Virus record (IMG/VR): IMGVR_UViG_3300009441_000008
Location: 5,005-69,004 of that record
Length of the DNA stretch: 64,000 bases
Source of the DNA: a virus
Direction: 5' to 3' (one strand)
Below the pieces are notes generated by a model that searched no databases, had not been told where the DNA came from, and was given only the letters and a program-made list of their open reading frames with translations. Numbering within the stretch: the stretch's first letter is position 1; the number at the start of each line of letters is the position of its first letter. The translations under genes and the position numbers were made by a program. Below are positions 4,710-59,682 of the stretch, one piece after another.

Positions 4710-5221
4710 TATACTCCTCTAAATTCTACTTCTTGTGCCGGAACACATGTTATGGTTCTATAGAATGGTTTAAAACCAAACATATTATGTTTACTGTCGG
4801 ACGTTACCTTCCCATCGTTAGTTACCGTATAATACCTTACTTTTTCTTCTGTTTCAGGATAACCAATAAAATCACCGTACTTTAAATCAATACCTAAATC
4901 ATTTAAATGTTTTAAATAAACCGACAATGTTAAATTACCAGGTTCATTGTATCGAACCATACCACTTTTATATGTACTGTTCTTTGGTTGTTCTACTTTA
5001 ACTAACGCATTAAACTCCACAGGTGGGTAAAATTTTATTTGATCTTTACCAACTTCAGCATATACTGCATCGGTATCGGTACTATCATGATCAACACGAT
5101 AGAGAACCAACTTCATATTGAGGTCACCATGAAGGTATTCCTCACCCATTTGTATGTTCAGGTCAAAATCTTCAGTTGAGAAGAATTTACTCAGTCTTGT
5201 AATTGGAACCTTTTTACTCAT
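4709..5221 (-). CDS. Neck/head-closure protein (gp14-like)
   Basis: LYRVD..T.TD.VY.E and GDFI motifs; neck-gene context; ATG 5221 preferred as start. Confidence 0.55.
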   Translation of the reverse strand: MSKKVPITRLSKFFSTEDFDLNIQMGEEYLHGDLNMKLVLYRVDHDSTDTDAVYAEVGKDQIKFYPPVEFNALVKVEQPKNSTYKSGMVRYNEPGNLTLSVYLKHLNDLGIDLKYGDFIGYPETEEKVRYYTVTNDGKVTSDSKHNMFGFKPFYRTITCVPAQEVEFRGV

Positions 5222-7031: not shown

Positions 7032-7877
7032 TAAGGAAGAGTCAAAAATGAAATATACATTATCACTATGTATTCTTTCAACTAAATCCATATCAATTTT
7101 AAAAACAATTATATCACCTCTATGGGTAAATGAAATATAATCAATATCCTTATATTGACTTATTGATGTGGTAACTTTTACTTTGTAATTACCATCTGAA
7201 GTAATTGACCATCCACCACATGATTTAACTTGATTCGTTTCGTTTCGATCTGTAAATTTTATTACACCATCGATACCTTTGAAATCTTGTGTACTTCCAC
7301 CTGTTAATATGTCGTCATCTTCATATCCAATTGAATCTGTCCATATTAATTTATGATTTGATTCTACTAATTTTTGAGACTTATTTCCTGCACCAACATT
7401 CTTCGTTTTAATATCATCTAAAGAGTCCTTTATTTTTCCATCTTCAAAAATCTCGAATCTATGATTATATAAATGTTCAGCAAATTCATTTATTGTATCA
7501 ATTACAGTGTCCTCAATAAAACCTCCGTCAGAATCTCTCTCATATGGTAACTCGTAACCGTACAATTCTTTTAGTTTCTTCTCTAAATATTTATGTTGTG
7601 TGTAACTTGTGTTTGTGTAGTTTATTCCACTCCTATGATCGTATTTGTCATTTTCGGGGTTATAATCATAAACACCCACTTCAGATGTACTCCCATCTGA
7701 TTCAATAATTTGACCGTATCGTGGTAATCCCCGATCTTCCCAAATAATTCTAACAATACCCATTATCTTCCAACTTAGTTTCTTTCTTAATGGACTTACA
7801 CTGTTAATGTATCTCCATATATCTAACTTAGATTTGTGTTTATTTCTGATTTTTTGTAATTGTTCTTCTGATACCAT
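7005..7877 (-). CDS. Hypothetical protein, probable C-terminal PD-(D/E)XK nuclease fold
   Basis: QDFKGIDGVI...NQVKS motif; own TATATTTG promoter at 7898-7905. Confidence 0.45.
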   Translation of the reverse strand: MVSEEQLQKIRNKHKSKLDIWRYINSVSPLRKKLSWKIMGIVRIIWEDRGLPRYGQIIESDGSTSEVGVYDYNPENDKYDHRSGINYTNTSYTQHKYLEKKLKELYGYELPYERDSDGGFIEDTVIDTINEFAEHLYNHRFEIFEDGKIKDSLDDIKTKNVGAGNKSQKLVESNHKLIWTDSIGYEDDDILTGGSTQDFKGIDGVIKFTDRNETNQVKSCGGWSITSDGNYKVKVTTSISQYKDIDYISFTHRGDIIVFKIDMDLVERIHSDNVYFIFDSSLLFFTNRLD

Positions 7878-7935: not shown

Positions 7936-9054
7936 ATGCCAAGCACAATTATAACACCAACAAACAAAGAGAAGTTATACTCACAGGTTTTTCATCTTTT
8001 AGGTATGCCGATTCGTTCTATCGAGTTGACGGAAGAACAGATGGATACATTCCTTGAGTTAGCACTTGACGAATATGAACAATATGTAAGTGATTGGTTA
8101 ATCGAATCACAGTGGTCATCATTAGCTGGGTTAAATGTTGATACACAATCCTTAACAAGAGCGTTCACTACGAGATCGGTTGACTATGAAACACAATATT
8201 CACATGCATATTCTAAAATTGTGGGTCTTCAAACAGGTGGTGAGTCGGAGTTGAAGTTAGATAAAATACAATTGGTTGCCAACCAACAAATGTATGAAAT
8301 TGCTGCGGGAAGAGAAATAAACGAACTTCTTTGGTTTACAAGAGCAGAATTAACCGATTCAATCGTGGATCCATTTTTAGGTGGGTTTGGTGGTCTTGGT
8401 GGTGTAGGTTCTGGTGGTGTTGGTGGATTTGCACAAATGGGAACTTCAGGTTCTTACTTTATGATGCCAGCTTATGATTTATTGGCAAGAATGCAAGATA
8501 GGGGTTTAAAAAATCGTTTAATCGGTGGTGAACTTACGTATCGTGTTACTGCGGGTCCTGAAGGAAAAAAACACGTCCATCTTTATAATACACCAGGTGG
8601 TAGGTTTGATTTTGGTTCTGTACAGAAACATAACTATTATGTGTGGTATTGGTATTATGATACCCACGATCGTGATGACTGTTTAGCAAAAAACAAAGAT
8701 ATTATAAAGTTACCTTCTGATATTGAAACAGAAGAACTTACATGGGAGACACTTAACAGACCAGCACAGAATTGGGTACGTAAGTATCTAATTGCATATT
8801 CTAAAGAAGGGTTAGGAAGAGTATATTCTAAATTTTCAGGAGACTTAAGAGTTCCCGATAGTGAAGTTAAATTAGATTATAACTCACTTTTAACTGAAGG
8901 TAAGGATGAGAAAACAAAACTTGTTGAAGAACTAACACAACGATTGGAAAGATTACGTCCTGACAAAATGTTAGAGAGAAAAGGTAATGAAGCAGAAAAC
9001 TTAAATAAGTCACTTAAGTATAGACCATTCCAATCTCCATTCCTTGGAATCTAA
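7936..9054 (+). CDS. Head-tail adaptor/neck protein (gp13-like)
   Basis: LG.P...IEL.EEQ.D at the N-terminus; WV..Y..A..KE.LG.V.SKFSG near the C-terminus. Confidence 0.75.
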   Translation: MPSTIITPTNKEKLYSQVFHLLGMPIRSIELTEEQMDTFLELALDEYEQYVSDWLIESQWSSLAGLNVDTQSLTRAFTTRSVDYETQYSHAYSKIVGLQTGGESELKLDKIQLVANQQMYEIAAGREINELLWFTRAELTDSIVDPFLGGFGGLGGVGSGGVGGFAQMGTSGSYFMMPAYDLLARMQDRGLKNRLIGGELTYRVTAGPEGKKHVHLYNTPGGRFDFGSVQKHNYYVWYWYYDTHDRDDCLAKNKDIIKLPSDIETEELTWETLNRPAQNWVRKYLIAYSKEGLGRVYSKFSGDLRVPDSEVKLDYNSLLTEGKDEKTKLVEELTQRLERLRPDKMLERKGNEAENLNKSLKYRPFQSPFLGI

Positions 9055-42491: not shown

Positions 42492-42680
42492 ATGCTAATA
42501 ATAAAAGTAACGAACAACAACATCGATCAGGCGATCAAGAAATTACGTCGTAAAGTAAAGAATGTGAAACAATTAAATTCACTTAGGAATAAGAAACAAC
42601 ACATAAAACCTTCAGTCAGTAAAAGATTACAAAAACAAAAGGCGGTGTATATTCAAAAAATAAAAGATAAGGAGCAATAA
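42492..42680 (+). CDS. rpsU: Ribosomal protein bS21 (Bacteroidota type)
   Basis: MLIIKV...NIDQAIKKLRRK...LR....KPSV.KR....KAVY, 62 aa. Confidence 0.85.
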   Translation: MLIIKVTNNNIDQAIKKLRRKVKNVKQLNSLRNKKQHIKPSVSKRLQKQKAVYIQKIKDKEQ

Positions 42681-50933: not shown

Positions 50934-51701
50934 CTATTGTTCTATGGATAATTTCTTATCGGTGAGTTTAGTTTGGATCCCCAACAACTCCCCTATATAA
51001 CCATTTCTCCTTAAAAGTTTGAAGGCTAAATTCTCATATGAGTATTCACCACCTTTGTCCAAACCACACTGTCTAAATGATTTTAATTTCTTTTTAACCT
51101 TAGATATGTCTTCAGAAACGTCATCTCCTTTCTCAAAAGATGATTTAATACCATCGATTAAATCCTCAAATACCTCCGACTTTTTAATAATCAATTCTTT
51201 ATCAATTGATTGGATTGTACGTTCAGGGGTAACCACCCATTCATCATTTAAGACAGAATAGATACCCGACGCTAAATGTTTTTCATTAACATCCTGTACA
51301 TATATCTCACAGTCGAACCCTTTTATTAATATCTCATGTTGTTTATTCCACAAACTTCTCTTACTATCAAAGAATTTCTTTAATAAGTCGAGGTTGTACT
51401 CTGTTTCGTTATAATCAATTAGAATGTGTAAATCAACGTCTGAGAACTTGGACCAATTGTAGTTAGCCAATGAACCTGTTAATATAATGTCATGTACAAA
51501 GAAGTCAATGTCAATAAAATTCATGAATTCTTCAGTAACGACCATTAATCTTTTTTTGATTTCATCAAGCATAAAAAATTCACCATCCTTTTCTCCGAAT
51601 ATGTCGGTGGACAGTGCATCTCTAATTTCAAATGATTTAACAATATCTTGATTGTTGCCAATCTCTTCGATTAACTCATCAACTAATTGAATGTTTTTCA
51701 T
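50934..51701 (-). CDS. Pol-beta-superfamily nucleotidyltransferase
   Basis: LTGSLANYNWS..SDVDLHI and a downstream EIYVQD. Confidence 0.8.
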   Translation of the reverse strand: MKNIQLVDELIEEIGNNQDIVKSFEIRDALSTDIFGEKDGEFFMLDEIKKRLMVVTEEFMNFIDIDFFVHDIILTGSLANYNWSKFSDVDLHILIDYNETEYNLDLLKKFFDSKRSLWNKQHEILIKGFDCEIYVQDVNEKHLASGIYSVLNDEWVVTPERTIQSIDKELIIKKSEVFEDLIDGIKSSFEKGDDVSEDISKVKKKLKSFRQCGLDKGGEYSYENLAFKLLRRNGYIGELLGIQTKLTDKKLSIEQ

Positions 51702-51943
51702 TATAATTTCTTAAACTCATAAGTCTTTGCAATACTAAGATTGAAAAACCTACCCTGTGATTCTGCGAGTCTTAATTTAGTAAACGCTTCCCACGGGACT
51801 TTATAATACTCATAACTTCCACCACTTTTAAACGTGACGACTAATGTTCCACCTTCCGTATTGTAAGATGCAGACTTTAAATTAGATGAATCGATTTCAA
51901 TTAAAATCTCTTTACCGTTGATTTTCTCTGATAGTATTGCCAT
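51701..51943 (-). CDS. KTSC-domain protein
   Basis: SSNL....Y.....L.V.FKSG..YEY..VP........AES.G.FFN..I. Confidence 0.9.
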   Translation of the reverse strand: MAILSEKINGKEILIEIDSSNLKSASYNTEGGTLVVTFKSGGSYEYYKVPWEAFTKLRLAESQGRFFNLSIAKTYEFKKL

Positions 51944-52051
51944 AATTTTTGTATTTTAATTTAATATAACAATTTATCACGATTTAATCAAGTCAGTCTG
52001 ATGTATATTATAAATATCTAAGAAATGATAAACCCCCTTACGGGGGCTATC

Positions 52052-52595: not shown

Positions 52596-54611
52596 ATGTC
52601 TGTAGAATTTTTTGAAGAGGGAGCACCTCAACAACAACGTAAAGGAAAGAAGGGGAGTTCAACTCCTATTTTAGATAATTTTTCAAGAGATTTAATTAAA
52701 CTTGCTGAACAAGGTTTAATCGATCCAATAATCGGTCGTGATAAAGAAGTTAAACGTATTGCTCAAATTCTCTCAAGGAAAAAGAAGAATAATACCATTA
52801 TTGTTGGAGATGCGGGGGTTGGGAAATCAGCGTTAGTAGAAAAACTTGCACTTATGATTAATGATGGGACATGTCCCACTAATCTAATAGATAAACGTAT
52901 AATGTCCCTTGATTTAACATCATTAGTTGCGGGAACTAAGTACCGAGGTCAGTTTGAGGAAAGAATTAAGGCAATATTAAATGAATTACAAGACGCACCA
53001 AATGTAATTGTATTCATAGATGAAATTCATACAATGGTCGGTGCGGGAAATGCATCAGGATCAATGGACGCCGCAAATATTCTTAAACCAGCATTAGCGA
53101 GGGGTGAAATACAATGTATCGGAGCAACTACATTTGATGAATACAAGAAGAATATTGAAAAAGATAGTGCATTGGTTAGACGATTTCAAAAGATCATCCT
53201 AACTGAACCAACTACAGATGAAACAATAGATATTCTAAAAAACCTAAAAGATTCTTATGAGGATTATCACATGGTCGAATACCAAGATAATGTCATTGAA
53301 ACAATCGTTAGTTTATCTAAAAGATACATTACAGATAAACAGTTCCCTGATAAGGCAATAGATATTCTTGATGAATTAGGTTCTGAAAAGAAAATTAATG
53401 TGAAAATTCCCGCTATTATCGAAAAACTGAGAAACCAATCAGATCTAATTAAGTTGGATAAACAAGAAATGGTTAGGAATCAAGATTATGAGAAAGCGGC
53501 GGAACTAAGAGATAATGAGAAAAAGGTCATTAAGAAATTAGAGTCCGAAAAGAAAAAGTGGAGTGTTGAACAAAAGTTAAATAAGAAACCTGTTATTATT
53601 GATGATGTATATAATATCATAACCGAGATGACGGGTGTCCCAATCACTAAACTTGACACAAAAGAGACTAAGAACCTTCTATCATTAGAAAAGACAATAT
53701 CTAAGAATGTTATAGGTCAGGATAATGCGGTTGAGATTATCTCCAAATCAATTAGACGGAACCGTGTCGGTGTTAGAGGTTCTAACAAACCAATTGGGTC
53801 ATTTATGTTTTTAGGATCAACAGGTGTTGGTAAAACACACTTAGCAAAAACATTAGCTAAAACCTTATTTGGTGATCCTGATAAAATTGTTAGGGTGGAT
53901 ATGAGTGAGTTTATGGAGAAACACAACGTTTCTAAACTTATTGGGTCTCCTCCTGGTTATGTTGGATTTGATGAAGGTGGACAACTTACTGAGAAGATTA
54001 AGAACAACCCATTTTCTGTTGTCTTATTTGATGAGATAGAAAAAGGTCATAAGGATGTCTTCAACCTATTACTACAGATATTAGATGAAGGTCACCTAAC
54101 AGATTCGTTTGGTAGAAAAATTAATTTCACGAACACATTAATAATCATGACATCTAATATAGGTGCTAAGAAAGTTTCTGAATTTGGTGGTGGAATTGGA
54201 TTTAGTGATGATAGTAATAACGAAAAGATTAAAGATTCAATTATTAGAAAGTCTTTAAAGAATCAATTTTCACCTGAATTCCTAAATAGAATTGACGATG
54301 TAATTGTTTTTGACAAATTAGATAATAAATCACTAAAGAAAATCGTTCAAATTGAATTAGACCATTTAGGTAAAAGACTTTTGGAGAGTAACTACGAAAT
54401 TACATTTCATAAATCAGTCGTTGATGAAATCATAAACCGTAATTCTGAGGAAGAGTATGGTGCAAGACCCATAAAACGAATTATTCAGAACCTATGTGAG
54501 GATTTTATTAGTGATAAAATTTTAACGGGTGATATCACGAAAGAGATGGGTATTATATTAAAAATAAAAGAGGGTAATTTAGAAATTCTAAAAAATACCC
54601 CCCTTATTTAG
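52596..54611 (+). CDS. clpC: ClpC-type AAA+ unfoldase lacking the N-terminal domain
   Basis: Two Walker A motifs (GDAGVGKS, GSTGVGKT), KYRG and GYVG pore loops, UVR-like QDYEKAAELRD, IGF ClpP-docking loop. Confidence 0.9.
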   Translation: MSVEFFEEGAPQQQRKGKKGSSTPILDNFSRDLIKLAEQGLIDPIIGRDKEVKRIAQILSRKKKNNTIIVGDAGVGKSALVEKLALMINDGTCPTNLIDKRIMSLDLTSLVAGTKYRGQFEERIKAILNELQDAPNVIVFIDEIHTMVGAGNASGSMDAANILKPALARGEIQCIGATTFDEYKKNIEKDSALVRRFQKIILTEPTTDETIDILKNLKDSYEDYHMVEYQDNVIETIVSLSKRYITDKQFPDKAIDILDELGSEKKINVKIPAIIEKLRNQSDLIKLDKQEMVRNQDYEKAAELRDNEKKVIKKLESEKKKWSVEQKLNKKPVIIDDVYNIITEMTGVPITKLDTKETKNLLSLEKTISKNVIGQDNAVEIISKSIRRNRVGVRGSNKPIGSFMFLGSTGVGKTHLAKTLAKTLFGDPDKIVRVDMSEFMEKHNVSKLIGSPPGYVGFDEGGQLTEKIKNNPFSVVLFDEIEKGHKDVFNLLLQILDEGHLTDSFGRKINFTNTLIIMTSNIGAKKVSEFGGGIGFSDDSNNEKIKDSIIRKSLKNQFSPEFLNRIDDVIVFDKLDNKSLKKIVQIELDHLGKRLLESNYEITFHKSVVDEIINRNSEEEYGARPIKRIIQNLCEDFISDKILTGDITKEMGIILKIKEGNLEILKNTPLI

Positions 54612-54654
54612 TTAAAAACTTGACTTTTTCGGTTTTTATATATATTTATACATT

Positions 54655-54760
54655 CAAGGTTATCTTTGCCGATACACCTTTTCGTTTTTCACGTTAATAT
54701 CGGTGGTGTTGAAACCACTGTAGACCAAAAACCCCAGCAACCTTGTTGGGGTTTTATTTT
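54655..54760 (+). ncRNA. Candidate small RNA A
   Basis: TTGACT at 54620 and TATTTATA at 54643-54650 upstream; two hairpins, then a terminator at 54727-54760; no ORF. Confidence 0.55.
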
Positions 54761-54761
54761 T

Positions 54762-55643
54762 TTATAGACTTAATAACATATCAATAAGTTCCTGTTGTGG
54801 AAACATATCGGATTTATCTTTACGTGTATTGGTGTGTGTCCACAATCCTTTGACTCTACCATAATAAGCATCATCTTGAAATTCAAATGCCGACACACCT
54901 ATCTTACGAATAAGATCAGGTAAACCTTTACGTACGTCAATACCGTCTCTTTCTGATACCCAAAGAATCCATTTATGTAGTGACTCAATTTGTTTGTCAG
55001 AATATCTGTGCCAATCCTTATAACCTCTAAATGGTTGTGATAATGTAACTATTTGATCATCAGCAACTCTTGTTCCTGCGTATGTTTTACCATTCTTTAC
55101 GTATCCAAAGTTACATGTTTCGATAGCAACTGAATGTTCGTGCATGTACTGTGATCCATTTTTACCTAAGTGCCAACCATATGACCCCTCAGGAAATGAT
55201 TGTACAACTTCACCATCGTATTTGTTGTCATTCCCTTTAACGGATTGTCCACCTAATACGAATTCAGTAGCCACCGCACCTCTATTGTCTCGACCCCAAG
55301 AATCAATACAGTTATATGGGTTATTCCAACCCGCAGTGTGATGTATGAATACATACTCCTTATTTGTTGGTCCCGTTTTATATTGACCCACAGGTAAATG
55401 ATGTCTATTAATTATTAATCCGTTTTCTGTTGTGAATACCTTCTCCGAATTGTCAGTAGTAGCCAAACCCATAGCATCCCAAGTGGCAGGACCGACAATA
55501 CCGTCAGAGTCCAAACCATTATCAGACTGCCATTTTTTAACAGATCCCTCAGTTCCTTTACCAAAGACCCCATCTGCATGTATACCCAAGTATTCTTGTA
55601 GGTCTTTAACTTCATTCCCTCGTGTTCCATTTTTTAATAACAT
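54762..55643 (-). CDS. Endolysin: peptidoglycan-binding domain plus amidase_2-like domain
   Basis: V..LQ..LG..ADG.FG..T..VK.WQ...GL..DGIVGP.TW; IHHTAG; HTN..KDK.D. Confidence 0.85.
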   Translation of the reverse strand: MLLKNGTRGNEVKDLQEYLGIHADGVFGKGTEGSVKKWQSDNGLDSDGIVGPATWDAMGLATTDNSEKVFTTENGLIINRHHLPVGQYKTGPTNKEYVFIHHTAGWNNPYNCIDSWGRDNRGAVATEFVLGGQSVKGNDNKYDGEVVQSFPEGSYGWHLGKNGSQYMHEHSVAIETCNFGYVKNGKTYAGTRVADDQIVTLSQPFRGYKDWHRYSDKQIESLHKWILWVSERDGIDVRKGLPDLIRKIGVSAFEFQDDAYYGRVKGLWTHTNTRKDKSDMFPQQELIDMLLSL

Positions 55644-55668
55644 GTTCTTTAATTATTATACCTTAAAT

Positions 55669-55914
55669 TTATTGTTCTCCTTGTTCTCCACCTTTTTTCC
55701 CAAAGATTTTACCTACCTCAGCAATACCGAAAGATCCAAGAGTAATAACAACGAACGAATTATAAATAAATTCGTTTATAACAAGGTCCTTACCAAAGTA
55801 CCCCGTTAATAAATCTGCAACTGCAAATATTACCATAATTGCAAATGATGCGAAACCAACCACCGACTTCTCGTTGATATTATTCTCATCTTTAAAAATG
55901 TCTTTGAATGCCAT
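55669..55914 (-). CDS. Holin-like two-TM membrane protein
   Basis: Two hydrophobic segments; directly upstream of the endolysin; late motif upstream. Confidence 0.55.
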   Translation of the reverse strand: MAFKDIFKDENNINEKSVVGFASFAIMVIFAVADLLTGYFGKDLVINEFIYNSFVVITLGSFGIAEVGKIFGKKGGEQGEQ

Positions 55915-56061
55915 AACTTTTAAATTTTAATTAATTTTATTTTTACTTACTAATAAATATCGTAAGATTTTGAAATATCATAGGATTGACTATATCAATT
56001 TTTTTGTTTATACTTACTATACTATCGTTCTTTGACATAAATTAAATTAAAACTATAAATT

Positions 56062-56385
56062 ATGGAAAATTTAGAATTCATTTTGGGTATGTTTACATCA
56101 ATTGGTGTGCTCGGTTTAGGGTATGTTATAGTAGGTATATTTAAGGTAAAACAACGTTCCAATAACTTCGAGGAAGTTATAAATGGAACACAATTAAATT
56201 TAGAAAGTGACCGTGCAGAATTCCATCTTAGGATGGACGGTATAACAAGAGACTTACATAAAGAAGTCGAAGATATCTATCGTCATATTGACAGTAGGTT
56301 TGATAAGTTCGAGAATAGGTTAACTAAGATCGATAAGGATGGGTGTGAACCCGTAAAAACATCTAAACAACTATTGACTGATTAG
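56062..56385 (+). CDS. Membrane-anchored coiled-coil protein
   Basis: N-terminal TM segment; IDSRFDKFE coiled coil. Confidence 0.6.
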   Translation: MENLEFILGMFTSIGVLGLGYVIVGIFKVKQRSNNFEEVINGTQLNLESDRAEFHLRMDGITRDLHKEVEDIYRHIDSRFDKFENRLTKIDKDGCEPVKTSKQLLTD

Positions 56386-56411
56386 TCATAAATAAAGTTA
56401 AAGACGATAGT

Positions 56412-56440
56412 AGACCTCACAGAAATGTGGGGTTTTTTTG
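56412..56440 (+). terminator. Intrinsic terminator
   Basis: ACCTCACA-GAAA-TGTGGGGT followed by a T run. Confidence 0.75.
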
Positions 56441-56493
56441 TTTTATATGGGGAGGGTTGATTCAATAGATTTTTGTTCTTATATTATAATTAT

Positions 56494-56579
56494 GCCGTTG
56501 TGGTGGAATTGGTAGACACGAGGGACTTAAAATCCCTTGAACAGTAATGTTCGTGGCGGTTCGATCCCGCCCAACGGTA
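56494..56579 (+). tRNA. tRNA-Leu(TAA), CCA not encoded
   Basis: Acceptor GCCGTTG/CAACGGT; anticodon arm AGGGA-CTTAAAA-TCCCT; long variable arm; GGCGG-TTCGATC-CCGCC. Confidence 0.95.
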
Positions 56580-56585
56580 CTAATG

Positions 56586-56672
56586 AGAGAGGTAGTGAAG
56601 CTACAATGATATAGAAAAAGGTAAGGGTTAACCTCTATATCGTAGTAACCCCGAAAGACCCGAAACCTCTCT
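56586..56672 (+). ncRNA. Candidate pseudoknotted structured RNA between the tRNAs
   Basis: Nested stems AGAGAGGT/ACCTCTCT, CTAC/GTAG, GATATAGA/TCTATATC; loop GGGTTA complementary to TAACCC. Confidence 0.5.
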
Positions 56673-56680
56673 TTTTTAAT

Positions 56681-56754
56681 GGACGAGTAGCTCAGCTGGA
56701 TAGAGCATCTCCCTTCTAAGGAGACGGTCATAGGTTCGAATCCTATCTCGTTCA
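56681..56754 (+). tRNA. tRNA-Arg(TCT), CCA not encoded
   Basis: GGACGAG/CTCGTTC; TCTCC-CTTCTAA-GGAGA; ATAGG-TTCGAAT-CCTAT. Confidence 0.95.
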
Positions 56755-56782
56755 CAATAAAATTATTTTAATACTTATTTTA

Positions 56783-56941
56783 ATGGGACTTATAAACAGA
56801 AACGGAATTATGGAACTACGGAAAAAACAACTAACATCTGAAATACTTAAATTAAAGAGTGATAAAACTCAAGATTCTAAATTAAGGATTCAGAAATTAC
56901 AACAACAACTTGACATAATCCAAAATGGGAAACACAAATAG
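56783..56941 (+). CDS. Small coiled-coil protein (52 aa, not in the ORF track)
   Basis: MGLINRNGIMELRKKQLTSEILKLK...GKHK; TACTTATT 3 nt upstream. Confidence 0.5.
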   Translation: MGLINRNGIMELRKKQLTSEILKLKSDKTQDSKLRIQKLQQQLDIIQNGKHK

Positions 56942-57104
56942 TGAACAATTAGAAGAACTATTATATAGAGCTCACAGGTTAGACATATTTGACGAGTTAC
57001 GTGATCGTGTGTCCGAACTATCCACCAAACCCACACCAACTAATATGTTAGAAAGATATGAGACGTGTTTTCGTCAAATTGTTGAGGAGAGATCACAACA
57101 ATAA
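56925..57104 (+). CDS. Small hypothetical protein (59 aa, not in the ORF track)
   Basis: MGNTNSEQLEELLYRAHRLDIFDELRDRV...RSQQ. Confidence 0.55.
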   Translation: MGNTNSEQLEELLYRAHRLDIFDELRDRVSELSTKPTPTNMLERYETCFRQIVEERSQQ

Positions 57105-57142
57105 CCTTTTTTTATCTTTTTATTTTTCGTATATTAATCAGT

Positions 57143-57808
57143 ATGAATACAATTACAGTTGTTTGTTCAACAAGATCAATAAACCAAGATTACGTTGACC
57201 ACGTCAGGAAATTCTTTTCCCACCCAAAAAACCAATATATCTTTGTAGAGAATAATGGTGATAAATCATTAACCGAAGTTTACAACCAAGGGATAGAAGA
57301 ATCTGAGAATGATATTGTTGTTTTCATTCATGATGATCTTGAGTTTGAAACTAAGAACTTAAACCCCAAAATAATTAAACTGATCGACCGTAAGCCTGAA
57401 TACGGGATAATCGGCTTAGCAGGTACGGACAATTTGATAAGTGGTATGTGGTGGAATGATAAGGACTCTATGCAAGGACAAGTTGGACACATTAATCGTG
57501 GTAAAAGGTACATGTCTAAGTATTCACCGTCGTTTGGTGATGACTTAAAAGAGGTTGTGGTAATCGATGGACTATTTATGATGGTACATAAGAGAAGGAT
57601 TAAACATCTTTTCAATGTAGATTTCGACGGTTTTCACTTCTACGATTTACCTATATGTTTGTTAAATTACATGGAAGGTATAAAAATTGGGGTGACAACT
57701 AAAATAAAACTATACCACCTTTCAATTGGAGAGGTAGATAAAAAATGGAAAAAGAGTAAATTATTCTTTGAGGCACTCTACGAGAAGTATTTACCTCTTA
57801 AAGTTTGA
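57143..57808 (+). CDS. GT-A glycosyltransferase-like protein
   Basis: YNQGI, VFIHDD, GIIGLAG, DGLFM, FHFYD. Confidence 0.8.
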   Translation: MNTITVVCSTRSINQDYVDHVRKFFSHPKNQYIFVENNGDKSLTEVYNQGIEESENDIVVFIHDDLEFETKNLNPKIIKLIDRKPEYGIIGLAGTDNLISGMWWNDKDSMQGQVGHINRGKRYMSKYSPSFGDDLKEVVVIDGLFMMVHKRRIKHLFNVDFDGFHFYDLPICLLNYMEGIKIGVTTKIKLYHLSIGEVDKKWKKSKLFFEALYEKYLPLKV

Positions 57809-57852
57809 CTTTCCATTCCTTTATGTGTATATTAGAGTATAAAACAATTATT

Positions 57853-58119
57853 ATGAAAAAAATCATCGCATTCTTTAAAAGACTATTTGGTGTTAAGGCA
57901 GAGGTTATTGTAATCCCCGAACCAACTAAAAAGAAAAGAAAACCAAGGAATAAAAGAAAACCTAAACCTAAGGTAACTGAGGATATGAAAAAACCAATCC
58001 TTAATGAAGAACCTAAGAAAAAAAGGAAACCAAGACCAAAAAGAAAACCAAAACCAAGAACTGATGGTGGAGAACCTTATGTGAGTGGTAGTGGAAGACA
58101 ACATCACAACAAAAAATAA
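57853..58119 (+). CDS. Very basic Lys/Arg/Pro-rich small protein
   Basis: Amphipathic MKKIIAFFKRLFG start; two EP.KKKRKPR.KRKPKP-like copies. Confidence 0.6.
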   Translation: MKKIIAFFKRLFGVKAEVIVIPEPTKKKRKPRNKRKPKPKVTEDMKKPILNEEPKKKRKPRPKRKPKPRTDGGEPYVSGSGRQHHNKK

Positions 58120-58121
58120 AT

Positions 58122-58520
58122 GGGGGTGAGTTGGCATTGATTGGCGTTGTCAATCGTACGGGGCACGTAGTCAAACTTCATCTATGACTTTAATCCATGA
58201 TGGAAATTTTCAGACGGCAACGTTTATAGTGAAATGGCAGTATTAGGTCTTGTATCTGATAATGTCGCAGTTAACGCATAACTAAGTTAGTGTTAACAAC
58301 GGGTCGGTGGACATATACCTTGGAACAGAAGTCCTTAAAGTGTGACACCACTTAAAAGTGTTAGAGGTGTAAGGTCGTCTCTTTAAATAAGGATTGGACC
58401 GAGGATGTTAGTTTCCTCTAAATAACTTTCTATTTCGAAGTGTTAGAAAATACTGTTCTAAACGTGTAGTCCTTTATGGGTGAGACGAACAAGACGCGGG
58501 TTCGACACCCGCCACCTCCA
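58122..58520 (+). ncRNA. ssrA: tmRNA
   Basis: Acceptor GGGGGTG/CACCTCC+A with a G3:U wobble (Ala identity); T-arm GCGGG-TTCGACA-CCCGC; about 400 nt; internal tag ORF at 58216-58281. Confidence 0.9.
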
Positions 58521-58522
58521 CA

Positions 58523-58551
58523 AAAGGGAATCGTAATGGTTCCCTTTTTTT
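58523..58551 (+). terminator. Intrinsic terminator after tmRNA
   Basis: AAAGGGAATC-GTAAT-GGTTCCCTTT followed by a T run. Confidence 0.8.
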
Positions 58552-58566
58552 ATGTATTTAAAAGTA

Positions 58567-58851
58567 ATGAAGTTACCTGTAGTAGTAGTTTATAAAACAA
58601 CATACCGTAAAAAAGAAAAGTTTCACTTAAAGGTGTTTAGAGATGTGTACGTTGATGATGTCATTAGTACGACCAAAAGAAAACCTTTAATACCTGAGGA
58701 TTCCGAAATAGTTGAAATTGGGGTGGGAAGTATTTTTGAGGAACGTTATATGAAAAAGTATAAGATCACTAAAACAATTAAAGAGGAAACGACCGCGGAG
58801 AAAACAATGAGAGAATTACAAACTATTGTAAACAAACAAAGAGGTCAATAG
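58567..58851 (+). CDS. Hypothetical basic protein
   Basis: ORF after the tmRNA terminator. Confidence 0.55.
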   Translation: MKLPVVVVYKTTYRKKEKFHLKVFRDVYVDDVISTTKRKPLIPEDSEIVEIGVGSIFEERYMKKYKITKTIKEETTAEKTMRELQTIVNKQRGQ

Positions 58852-58933
58852 ACCTCTCTGCCGAGATAAGTTTCACTCTCCTTTCCGTTAATAATCGTTT
58901 ATCAGTTTTAGACCGACCAAAGTCCCAACCTCT
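58830..58933 (-). ncRNA. Candidate small RNA B
   Basis: Late motif at 58937-58944 on -, just after the terminator (58956-58985) of the upstream operon; own terminator AGAGGTC-TATT-GACCTCT-TTGTTT; no convincing ORF. Confidence 0.5.
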
Positions 58934-59007
58934 TCTTATAAATATCAGTTAGATCAAAAAAAAACCCCACCGAAGTGAGGTTATTTGTTAAATTTTAAAC
59001 ATTCTTC

Positions 59008-59682
59008 CTATTCTTCTGATATTGAAGTTTTTAAATTGGATAAAGATCCTTTTATATCCGCATTACATATTTTTTCAGCAAGAACCTCCCCAACTGATGA
59101 TGATCTCAGATATTGCCCTAAAGTCTGTTTTACAAAGGTAAATGCTATTGATCCTTCTTCAGTATCGTATGTTAGATATTCCACCACACCTTCTATTACC
59201 GAATCCACTATAGCAGGACCGTGTTTTTCACAGTTACTACCACCCTTAAACAGACCAATTATCTCGTTTATTCCTAAATCAGCAAAACCCACGGCTAAAG
59301 CACTGGCCAATTGACCCTTAAATCCAATAAGACCAAACATTTTTTTAATTACATATCCCCTAACCTGAGACATGATACCACTTCCTGCTTTAGATGCGAT
59401 GTTGCCACCGGTCAGGTCGGTACCCTCACTATCAGAATCTTTATCACCACCTGGCATTAAATATTTTTTAAGATAGTCAGTTATACCTTCGTCAAGAGAA
59501 CCTTCAATCTCCTCATCAGATTTACCCTGATCTTCTAAATCCGCTAATGCTTGTATTGCATTATCTAATTTTTCTTGATCTGAGGTATCTTCGTTTTCTA
59601 AAATCAAAGAAAATGTTTTGTTCATGGTATATCTCTCATTTAGAGTTTTCCTTACCATTTCTTGTATTAGTTTCTTATTCAT
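59008..59682 (-). CDS. Hypothetical protein, possible ejected/internal protein
   Basis: MNKKLIQEMVRKTLNE leader; amphipathic helices. Confidence 0.6.
   Translation of the reverse strand: MNKKLIQEMVRKTLNERYTMNKTFSLILENEDTSDQEKLDNAIQALADLEDQGKSDEEIEGSLDEGITDYLKKYLMPGGDKDSDSEGTDLTGGNIASKAGSGIMSQVRGYVIKKMFGLIGFKGQLASALAVGFADLGINEIIGLFKGGSNCEKHGPAIVDSVIEGVVEYLTYDTEEGSIAFTFVKQTLGQYLRSSSVGEVLAEKICNADIKGSLSNLKTSISEE

Follow-up and report, generated by a model that had tools for sequence, protein, structure and literature searches.

Two mutually complementary non-coding RNAs predicted from separate loci of a bS21-encoding jumbo phage fragment

The window analysed here, a stretch of 64,000 nucleotides (nt) covering positions 5,005 to 69,004 of the IMG/VR virus record IMGVR_UViG_3300009441_000008, carries two short units, RNA A on the + strand and RNA B on the - strand, whose predicted transcripts are complementary to each other. 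The 69-kb record is a fragment of a jumbo phage, since CheckV rates it at 22% completeness, and the GC content of the window is 34%. Both units are housed in intergenic gaps between convergent genes. Unit A is flanked by a ClpB/ClpC-like double AAA+ ATPase gene (52596-54611, +) and an amidase gene (54762-55643, -), and unit B by an open reading frame (ORF) of 99 amino acids (aa) at 58552-58851 (+), which stands downstream of an Rfam-called transfer-messenger RNA (tmRNA; 58122-58523, +), and a 224-aa ORF (59008-59682, -). On the + strand the two units share three blocks, located where the initial annotation had claimed them: block 1, TCT(T/C)TGCCGA, at 54663 and 58855; block 2, CGTTAATA(A)TCG, at 54692 and 58886; and block 3, GACCAAA, at 54723 and 58915. 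In the opposite-sense transcripts these blocks would form helices I, II and III of an A:B duplex. The features of the two regions are the following, R1 and R2 being the covariance models of A and B.

54637-54652, + strand: promoter-like motif of A (TATATATTTATAC), with the core TATTTATA at 54643-54650; invariant among the fetched A loci
54656-54761, + strand: RNA A, about 105 nt, predicted non-coding; R1 match of 113 bits
54656-54680, + strand: hairpin 1 of A, loop carrying block 1 (RNAfold, unpaired probabilities, consensus fold)
54662-54672, + strand: block 1, A side of helix I (ATCTTTGCCGA); core paired throughout, as detailed below
54677-54702, + strand: block 2, A side of helix II (CCTTTTCG ... 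CGTTAATATCG), unstructured linker (alignment to reverse-complemented B)
54701-54720, + strand: hairpin 2 of A, conserved GTTGAA loop; no counterpart in B
54723-54729, + strand: block 3, A side of helix III (GACCAAA; sequence match and alignment)
54728-54765, + strand: intrinsic terminator of A (terminator scan 54728-54755: 12 pairs, then a T run)
58937-58944, - strand: promoter-like motif of B (TATTTATA), closely following the terminator (58963-58982, -) of the 224-aa ORF
58830-58932, - strand: RNA B, about 100 nt, predicted non-coding; R2 match of 101.5 bits
58904-58930, - strand: hairpin 1 of B, loop CTTTGGTCG carrying block 3 (GACCAAA on the + strand, 58915-58921)
58880-58903, - strand: block 2, B side of helix II, unstructured central stretch (alignment, unpaired probabilities)
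58874-58886, - strand: Shine-Dalgarno (SD)-like element of B, window copy GGAAAGGAGAGTG, interrupted by one A (variant comparison)
58863-58880, - strand: hairpin 2 of B, SD-like purines paired with TATCTC/TCTC; low variation, uninformative either way
58855-58864, - strand: block 1, B side of helix I (RNA TCGGCAGAGA); overlaps the 5' half of the terminator stem
58830-58862, - strand: terminator-like hairpin and interrupted U tract of B (RNAfold); overlaps the end of the 99-aa ORF

Sequence comparison supports A and B as conserved, structured and separate non-coding RNA genes read in opposite senses, because their covariation is strand-specific. After trimming, 19 distinct A variants from related marine phage contigs and 26 distinct B variants were obtained. 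In the consensus fold of A (14 sequences), 390/390 cells (100%) were paired and 14 cells were changed on both sides, against 4.9 in shuffles; in hairpin 2, three of the seven pairs showed both-side changes. In that of B (8 sequences), 96.7% of 246 cells were paired and six pairs had changed on both sides; in hairpin 1 of B, both-side changes were seen in 6/10 pairs and the loop was unpaired, its letters having been part of the search pattern, so that conservation of this loop is forced in the pattern-derived loci. The block 1 stretch ATCTCG(G/A)CA, whose letters lay outside the search pattern, was kept in all 26 B variants. Consensus energies favoured the + strand for A (-30.7 on + vs -18.8 on -) and the - strand for B (-24.3 on - vs -15.5 on +), and when either unit is read from its unfavoured strand, G-U pairs become A-C mismatches, among them those of hairpin 2 of A. 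Both the energies and the covariation agree with the opposite-sense transcription proposed in the initial annotation.

It is very improbable that both RNAs come from the + strand, as paralogous 3' untranslated regions of the ClpC-like gene and of the 99-aa ORF or as a type I toxin-antitoxin. Read-through into A would be possible, since there is no terminator between the ClpC-like stop codon and A, and the hairpin at 58963-58982, called on the - strand, can also be read as a + strand hairpin followed by TTATTTGTT; yet B has a poorer fold when read from the + strand, its G-U pairs being lost there, and the R1 model does not detect B on that strand at E <= 1, which argues against same-sense paralogues. 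Moreover, no ORF is kept in either RNA, and the genes stand 4-11 kb apart without overlapping. A cis-antisense or type I toxin-antitoxin arrangement was rejected, with genes kilobases apart, a broken TTG frame in A and no ATG at start-codon distance from the SD-like element of B. That 33-codon TTG frame of A is interrupted by indels in relatives, and the GTG or ATC frames of B are not conserved; indels shift the frames of both RNAs, and none is maintained among the relatives.

Within the window, no further strong match to R1 and no second match to R2 at E <= 1 were found. Among viral contigs, the first A pattern returned only true A loci (17/17) and the second returned 24 among 26 matches, the remaining two (L190 and L193) being coding false positives, while matches of the B patterns were true in 9/19 viral and 46/49 metagenome contigs and false in the other 10 and 3, respectively. 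Blastn matches to B in contigs holding only A, as well as recurrent R2 matches of 22-25 bits, corresponded to other terminators or coding sequence and not to B. Rfam 15, applied to the whole window at the gathering threshold, recovered only the tmRNA and two transfer RNAs (tRNAs); in permissive scans the best scores were 30.7 bits against a cut-off of 55 for A and 20.5 bits against 47 for B, most weak matches ending at the terminator hairpin, and ARAGORN gave no family for either RNA. In distant amidase-bearing phages, weak R2 matches of 27-34 bits (L024:7316-7414, L023:1845-1941, L075:4370-4465) sit at the 3' end of a gene just upstream of the amidase and include AAAGG(G)AGGT(G/A) followed by a terminator; they may represent another gene-less SD-like element.

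The two units are conserved together: all 11 records covering both sites hold both, namely the nine viral contigs with a true B, the window itself and a 248-kb contig from a bin labelled Flavobacteriaceae (G015). In four of the contigs with A only (G005, G006, G008 and G019), A lies no more than about 5.4 kb from the contig end on the side of B, and A was also contained in 6/46 metagenome stretches with B, most of the others being short. The orientation is always convergent, A being followed by B on the opposite strand, at a distance of 4.1-5.3 kb in the window, L006, L007 and L010, and of 10.8 kb in G015. Among 80 loci with amidase homologues, A was found at the same place in eight and displaced by about 5.8 kb in two more (L003 and L004), which carry an insert of that size: the amidase, 95% identical, ends at 2659 and 1608, and A occupies 8466-8571 and 7415-7520, respectively. 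The ClpC-like gene adjoins A in every locus, and A is consequently linked to this gene and not to the amidase.

Regarding transcription, the oriented motif TATTTATA occurs in 20 copies in the window and is read as a putative late-type promoter element, because at least 10 of them have an ATG in the same orientation no more than about 50 nt further on, and the genes behind it include those for the tail sheath, the head-tail adaptor and the head protease. Expression of A and B would thus be promoter-driven, from the copies preceding each unit. The suggestion of a temporal switch based on a TTGACT element upstream of A did not survive the comparison, given that the element is absent in 7/16 fetched loci showing that stretch and that A and B share the same late-type motif; likewise, nothing speaks for the two-piece catalytic or structural RNA that had been put forward. 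As for the description of both units as having a promoter and a terminator with no ORF, the two promoter motifs, the terminator of A and the lack of an ORF stood, and the terminator of B was the part left uncalled by the scan. The 3' hairpin of B has 12 bp according to RNAfold and is followed by an interrupted U tract, UUGUUUGUUU; the 3' end of B is less certain, because the terminator scan omits this hairpin. At 58830-58851 the terminator stem and U tract of B are antisense to the last codons of the convergent 99-aa ORF, and conservation of the 3' part of B may in part reflect that coding sequence. A further copy of the motif (+ strand positions 52009-52016) follows a terminator-like hairpin on the - strand and precedes about 300 nt with no obvious ORF and then a 255-aa ORF (50934-51701, -); this region, about 51702-52016 (-), is a candidate for a third non-coding unit, or it may be a long leader.

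The RNA-library data consist of contigs in which strand and ends are unreadable and DNA may be included. Runs X1 and X2, from one study, cover A (54400-54800); B lies within a 3.8-kb contig in X1, and an X2 contig ends at 58863. Runs X5 and X6 had no cover over A or B and were uninformative. At the predicted start of A (54654-54656) three bases differ in the contigs of X1 and X2, which read CAC in place of TCA; both contigs stop at 54800, the next X1 contig beginning at 54802, at the boundary between the convergent units. In all four RNA-library runs the strongest cover falls on the tmRNA stretch (58122-58523); B is located about 300 nt downstream of it, on the opposite strand. The tmRNA is a full-length Rfam call (72.8 bits against a cut-off of 47) that ARAGORN does not make, and between A and B lie tRNA-Leu(TAA) at 56494-56580 (+) and tRNA-Arg(TCT) at 56681-56755 (+). 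No relatives of the 224-aa ORF adjoining B were found among the viral contigs.

Across 10-11 distinct genome pairs, alignment of A to reverse-complemented B gave a colinear likeness running from block 1 to block 3, interrupted by two large indels that correspond to the hairpin-2 loop of B and to hairpin 2 of A. In total, some 40 nt of the two RNAs are antisense to each other, divided among three colinear blocks situated mostly in open regions. Helix I (11-12 bp) joins CUCUUUGYCGA in the 5' hairpin loop of A with UCGRCAAAGG of B; helix II comprises 8 bp plus about 10 interrupted bp and joins unstructured linkers, CCUUUUCG with CGAAAAGG, to which the window lineage adds a match of its own, CGUUAAUAUCG with CGAUUAUUAACG; and helix III (4-7 bp) joins the hairpin-1 loop of B with GACC(U)AAA just before the terminator of A. 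According to unpaired probabilities, most complementary stretches are open, with values of about 0.6-0.9 in the block 2 linker of A, in line with the earlier placement of block 1 in the 5' hairpin loop of A and of blocks 2 and 3 in linkers. The exception is the B side of helix I, which overlaps hairpin 2 and the terminator stem of B.

The full-length A:B duplex reached -57.4 kcal/mol, compared with -37.2 +/- 4.7 kcal/mol for 300 dinucleotide shuffles, none of which attained the real value (0/300). The core duplexes, at -40 to -52 kcal/mol, surpassed their shuffles in 11/11 distinct pairs (z from -3.1 to -5.5), with 0-2 of 200 shuffles per pair reaching the real energy, and paired cells numbered 478 in register vs 228-320 with the partner slid by 1-3 columns. 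For this one comparison the complementarity is beyond chance; it is kept in every distinct genome pair and is more extensive than first described. In the ten columns of the helix I core, all 100 cells were paired across 10 genomes. Its sole A-side substitution, C to U, occurs in G001, L174 and L176, and the same three genomes have G to A at the partner position of B; the other eight genomes keep C and G, and no mixed state was seen, which is what a compensatory change looks like. Furthermore, helices I and II contain five columns in which only B varies, with A or G facing a U that is invariant in A; this bears out the previous remark that T/C differences between the copies become G:U pairs. 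In short, A and B come from separate genes and are complementary where they are accessible, as in a pair of small RNA (sRNA) and anti-sRNA. In the 64-kb window there was no clear messenger RNA (mRNA) target, and no further copies of the blocks beyond chance.

On the DNA, the blocks form direct repeats in the same order and with similar spacing, so they could be read as DNA-level sites such as operators or recombination sites instead of RNA pairing surfaces. We regard this as scarcely credible: elsewhere in the window the blocks are no more frequent than chance allows, they are located inside units with strand-specific RNA covariation, and the differences between their copies are biased to keep G-U pairs in the proposed RNA orientation.

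What such a pair might do is suggested by its setting and by the SD-like element of B. The phage encodes its own bS21 protein (ORF 42492-42680), whose homologue in the 248-kb G015 contig (C1) clears the Pfam cut-off, and an SD core, even as a 4-mer, is found in the 20 nt before the start codon of only 4/57 window ORFs (background 9.4%). The scarcity of SD cores fits a Bacteroidota-type host, and the phage clade appears to point to Flavobacteriaceae-type hosts, because these phages encode bS21 and do not use SD sequences. When the phage bS21 was compared with a bacterial collection, the sole match was the 248-kb phage-like contig in the G015 bin, which we treat as a candidate and not as a proven host. 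This contig is a near-complete relative of the present phage within a Flavobacteriaceae-labelled bin; the bin may be mis-binned or may hint at the host, and its own rpsU (G015:C3:127052-127204) has no extended SD. The clade resembles the bS21 phages of PMC9723584 as these are described in its accessible text, in which a word search for tmRNA, small RNA, sRNA, non-coding and promoter returned nothing. Among GenBank phages, blastn over the region found no close relatives, and protein-level comparison found only distant jumbo phages.

In the passages of PMC9976891 on Flavobacteriales, the extended SD is essentially confined to rpsU and is read by bS21-less ribosomes, resulting in autoregulation of bS21; its authors speculate that bS21 phages may encode bS21-exchange factors, which the host rpsU feedback would counter. 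In B, the 10-mer AAAGGAGGTG is present in 21/26 variants, extended by AT in some of them (up to 12 nt), and in none of the 26 does an ATG follow 5-10 nt behind it; a terminator-like hairpin follows instead. Of the rpsU genes fetched from 61 Flavobacteriaceae genomes, the 30 best loci were read; among them, GGAGG (GGGGG in L207) with purine-rich flanks precedes the rpsU ATG in 28, and the identical 10-mer AAAGGAGGTG occurs in 10, several with the same ACGAAA prefix. B therefore has the extended SD of an rpsU-type initiation region and neither the start codon nor the bS21 ORF; judged by its sequence, it imitates an rpsU leader but is not one. Within the predicted duplex, helix II covers the 5' half of the SD-like element, and in the window lineage the match of A spans the whole element with a small bulge.

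Taken with moderate confidence, A and B would be a mutually titrating RNA pair, in which B acts as a decoy of ribosomes or of the rpsU leader and A as its antagonist; we infer that both are transcribed and anneal in the cell, that B is a decoy and that control runs from A to B. The late-type TATTTATA promoters on opposite strands would produce both RNAs, which would anneal in trans through the three helices. Helix III is the likely first contact, the 5' hairpin loop of B meeting the open stretch before the terminator of A; the unstructured linkers would then zip up in helix II, over 8 bp and about 10 more, and the 5' hairpin loop of A would pair in helix I, over 11-12 bp, with B just before its terminator. 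The outcome would be mutual neutralisation by sequestration, and a double-strand RNase would probably cut the long duplex. Of the two, the effector is more likely to be B, since the probable function of the pair follows from its rpsU-like extended SD, of 10-12 nt and with no start codon or ORF behind it. It could occupy the free 16S tail of bS21-less ribosomes, or replace the rpsU leader, and A would switch it off, because helix II covers the 5' half of the SD-like element. The specific role given to B, that of an rpsU-leader decoy to which free anti-SD tails would bind, is a tentative detail. Equally tentative, if possible, is a version in which B captures the freed 16S tail of ribosomes lacking host bS21, A being the timer or antidote that hides the site; such capture would shut the only bS21 feedback loop of the host while the phage installs its own bS21.

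The roles could also be reversed, with A as the effector, an anti-SD-like sRNA that lies over the host rpsU leader and blocks the re-supply of bS21, and B as its sponge. B does resemble an rpsU leader stripped of its start codon, which is what a target mimic looks like, as in the passages of PMC12197685 on AgvB; several rpsU leaders have, ahead of GGAGG, the sequence ACGAAA(A)GG, to which CCTTTTCG of A is complementary, and the best duplexes of A with these leaders reach -21 to -24 kcal/mol. Over the 30 rpsU leaders, though, A averaged only -13.5 to -15.9 kcal/mol, with mean z of -0.9 to -1.7 relative to shuffles, against -30 to -39 kcal/mol with its own B in the same comparison. The rpsU leaders have nothing corresponding to blocks 1 and 3 of A, and the rpsU of the G015 bin lacks the extended SD. 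This reading is weaker than the one with B as effector, and we consider it improbable.

Several observations weigh against the proposal of a titrating pair with B as decoy. As a blind genome-wide signal the complementarity is weak: after the antisense of A itself, B ranks first among 12,784 windows, narrowly (-47.0 vs -46.8 and -45.2); a gapped local alignment scored 36, tied with two unrelated windows; the nhmmer profile of B matches the antisense of A at only E = 0.33, and that of A has no match to B at E <= 100. The gain on cofolding was modest, -12.8 vs -6.9 +/- 2.7, and was reached by 8/300 shuffles; nested cofolding cannot represent loop-loop contacts. Cognate partners hardly outperformed non-cognate ones, with -47.0 vs -45.6 kcal/mol (permutation fraction 0.03) and 478 vs 474.0 +/- 1.7 paired cells (fraction 0.02); of the compensatory changes sought in relatives, then, the helix I double change was found and the cognate excess is slight. 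This C-G to U-A change may be a single evolutionary event, and at four columns of helix II (53, 57, 59 and 60) 1-2 genomes carry changes that disrupt pairing. Parts of blocks 2 and 3 were fixed by the search patterns, a sampling bias that does not extend to block 1 of B. The SD-like element appears in an interrupted form, GGAGAGTG, in 4/26 B variants, that of the window included, and its purines are partly paired within B, with the UAUCUC of hairpin 2; two of the 30 rpsU loci have no SD element, among them that of the G015 bin, the one candidate host genome. Finally, the hairpin of B is missing from the terminator-scan calls and its U tract is poor, and the X1 and X2 cover over the two regions comes from contigs that show neither transcription nor strand.

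Since the loci lie apart, the complementarity must be either maintained by selection or a relic of origin, one gene having arisen from the antisense of a copy of the other, with both now independent and no pairing in the cell. Apart from two large indels, the alignment of A to reverse-complemented B is indeed colinear, as expected of diverged copies; the near-equality of cognate and non-cognate pairs and the marginal blind-search similarity are as such an origin would leave them, and the hairpin-2 loop of A and the GGAGGTG of B are conserved with no pairing to the partner. In favour of selection, the open stretches conserved in each RNA are for the most part those complementary to the partner, whereas the loops of hairpin 2 and of the terminators vary; every cell of the helix I core is paired in the 10 genomes, with one substitution seen on both sides; the B-side changes opposite U are all A/G; and both genes are present in every record covering both sites. 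We consider a relic unlikely, and continue to favour a mutually titrating pair.

Why Bacteroidota phages so often carry bS21 is an open question. The A/B pair gives the speculation on bS21 interference, as worded in the passages available from PMC9976891, a concrete and testable molecule, and it would be a compact two-RNA circuit from a phylum with little-known RNA regulation. If the decoy role is true, B would be without known precedent as an RNA that titrates ribosomes via the anti-SD sequence, and the pair would offer a mechanism for why these phages carry bS21. A literature search found no report of such a pair; within the literature searched, this would, if true, be the first lytic-type phage in which one locus encodes an sRNA and another its dedicated RNA antagonist.

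As compared here, none of the nearest known kinds has both partners as separate, co-conserved phage genes. To our knowledge, Bacteroidota have no Hfq-type chaperone, a difference from the setting of the AgvB/GcvB pair considered below. As predicted for A and B, antisense control between RNA I and RNA II at the par locus of pAD1 goes through short, dispersed blocks in loops and not through one uninterrupted duplex. The P1 c4 RNA is similar in acting as an antisense through several short dispersed loop blocks (PMC12197685, in its part on c4). In both par and c4, one partner is an mRNA, for a toxin or for an antirepressor operon, and the two genes are neighbours or share an operon; neither is true of A and B, which have no ORF and come from separate loci. 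In the RNase III-processed CJnc190/CJnc180 pair of Campylobacter jejuni, as presented in the sections at hand of PMC8687705, an sRNA has a dedicated antagonist with extended complementarity of a length suited to a double-strand RNase, like A and B, but these RNAs are cis-encoded and overlapping, so their complementarity is automatic, whereas the genes of A and B stand 4.2-10.8 kb apart. The extended SD leader of rpsU in Flavobacteriales, in the excerpts of PMC9976891 and PMC7797042 that treat it, shares with B the same 10-mer, often with the ACGAAA prefix; unlike that leader, B has no start codon or ORF, a terminator follows about 25 nt behind, and the SD is partly paired. AgvB and GcvB resemble A and B in that an RNA from a separate locus pairs with another RNA and titrates it by mimicking what this RNA, or a cellular partner, recognises, the sponge being phage-borne (PMC12197685, in its passages on AgvB). 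Set against that account, A and B are both phage genes, found together wherever a record covers both sites, and their pairing is long and spread over three blocks rather than a short seed mimic.

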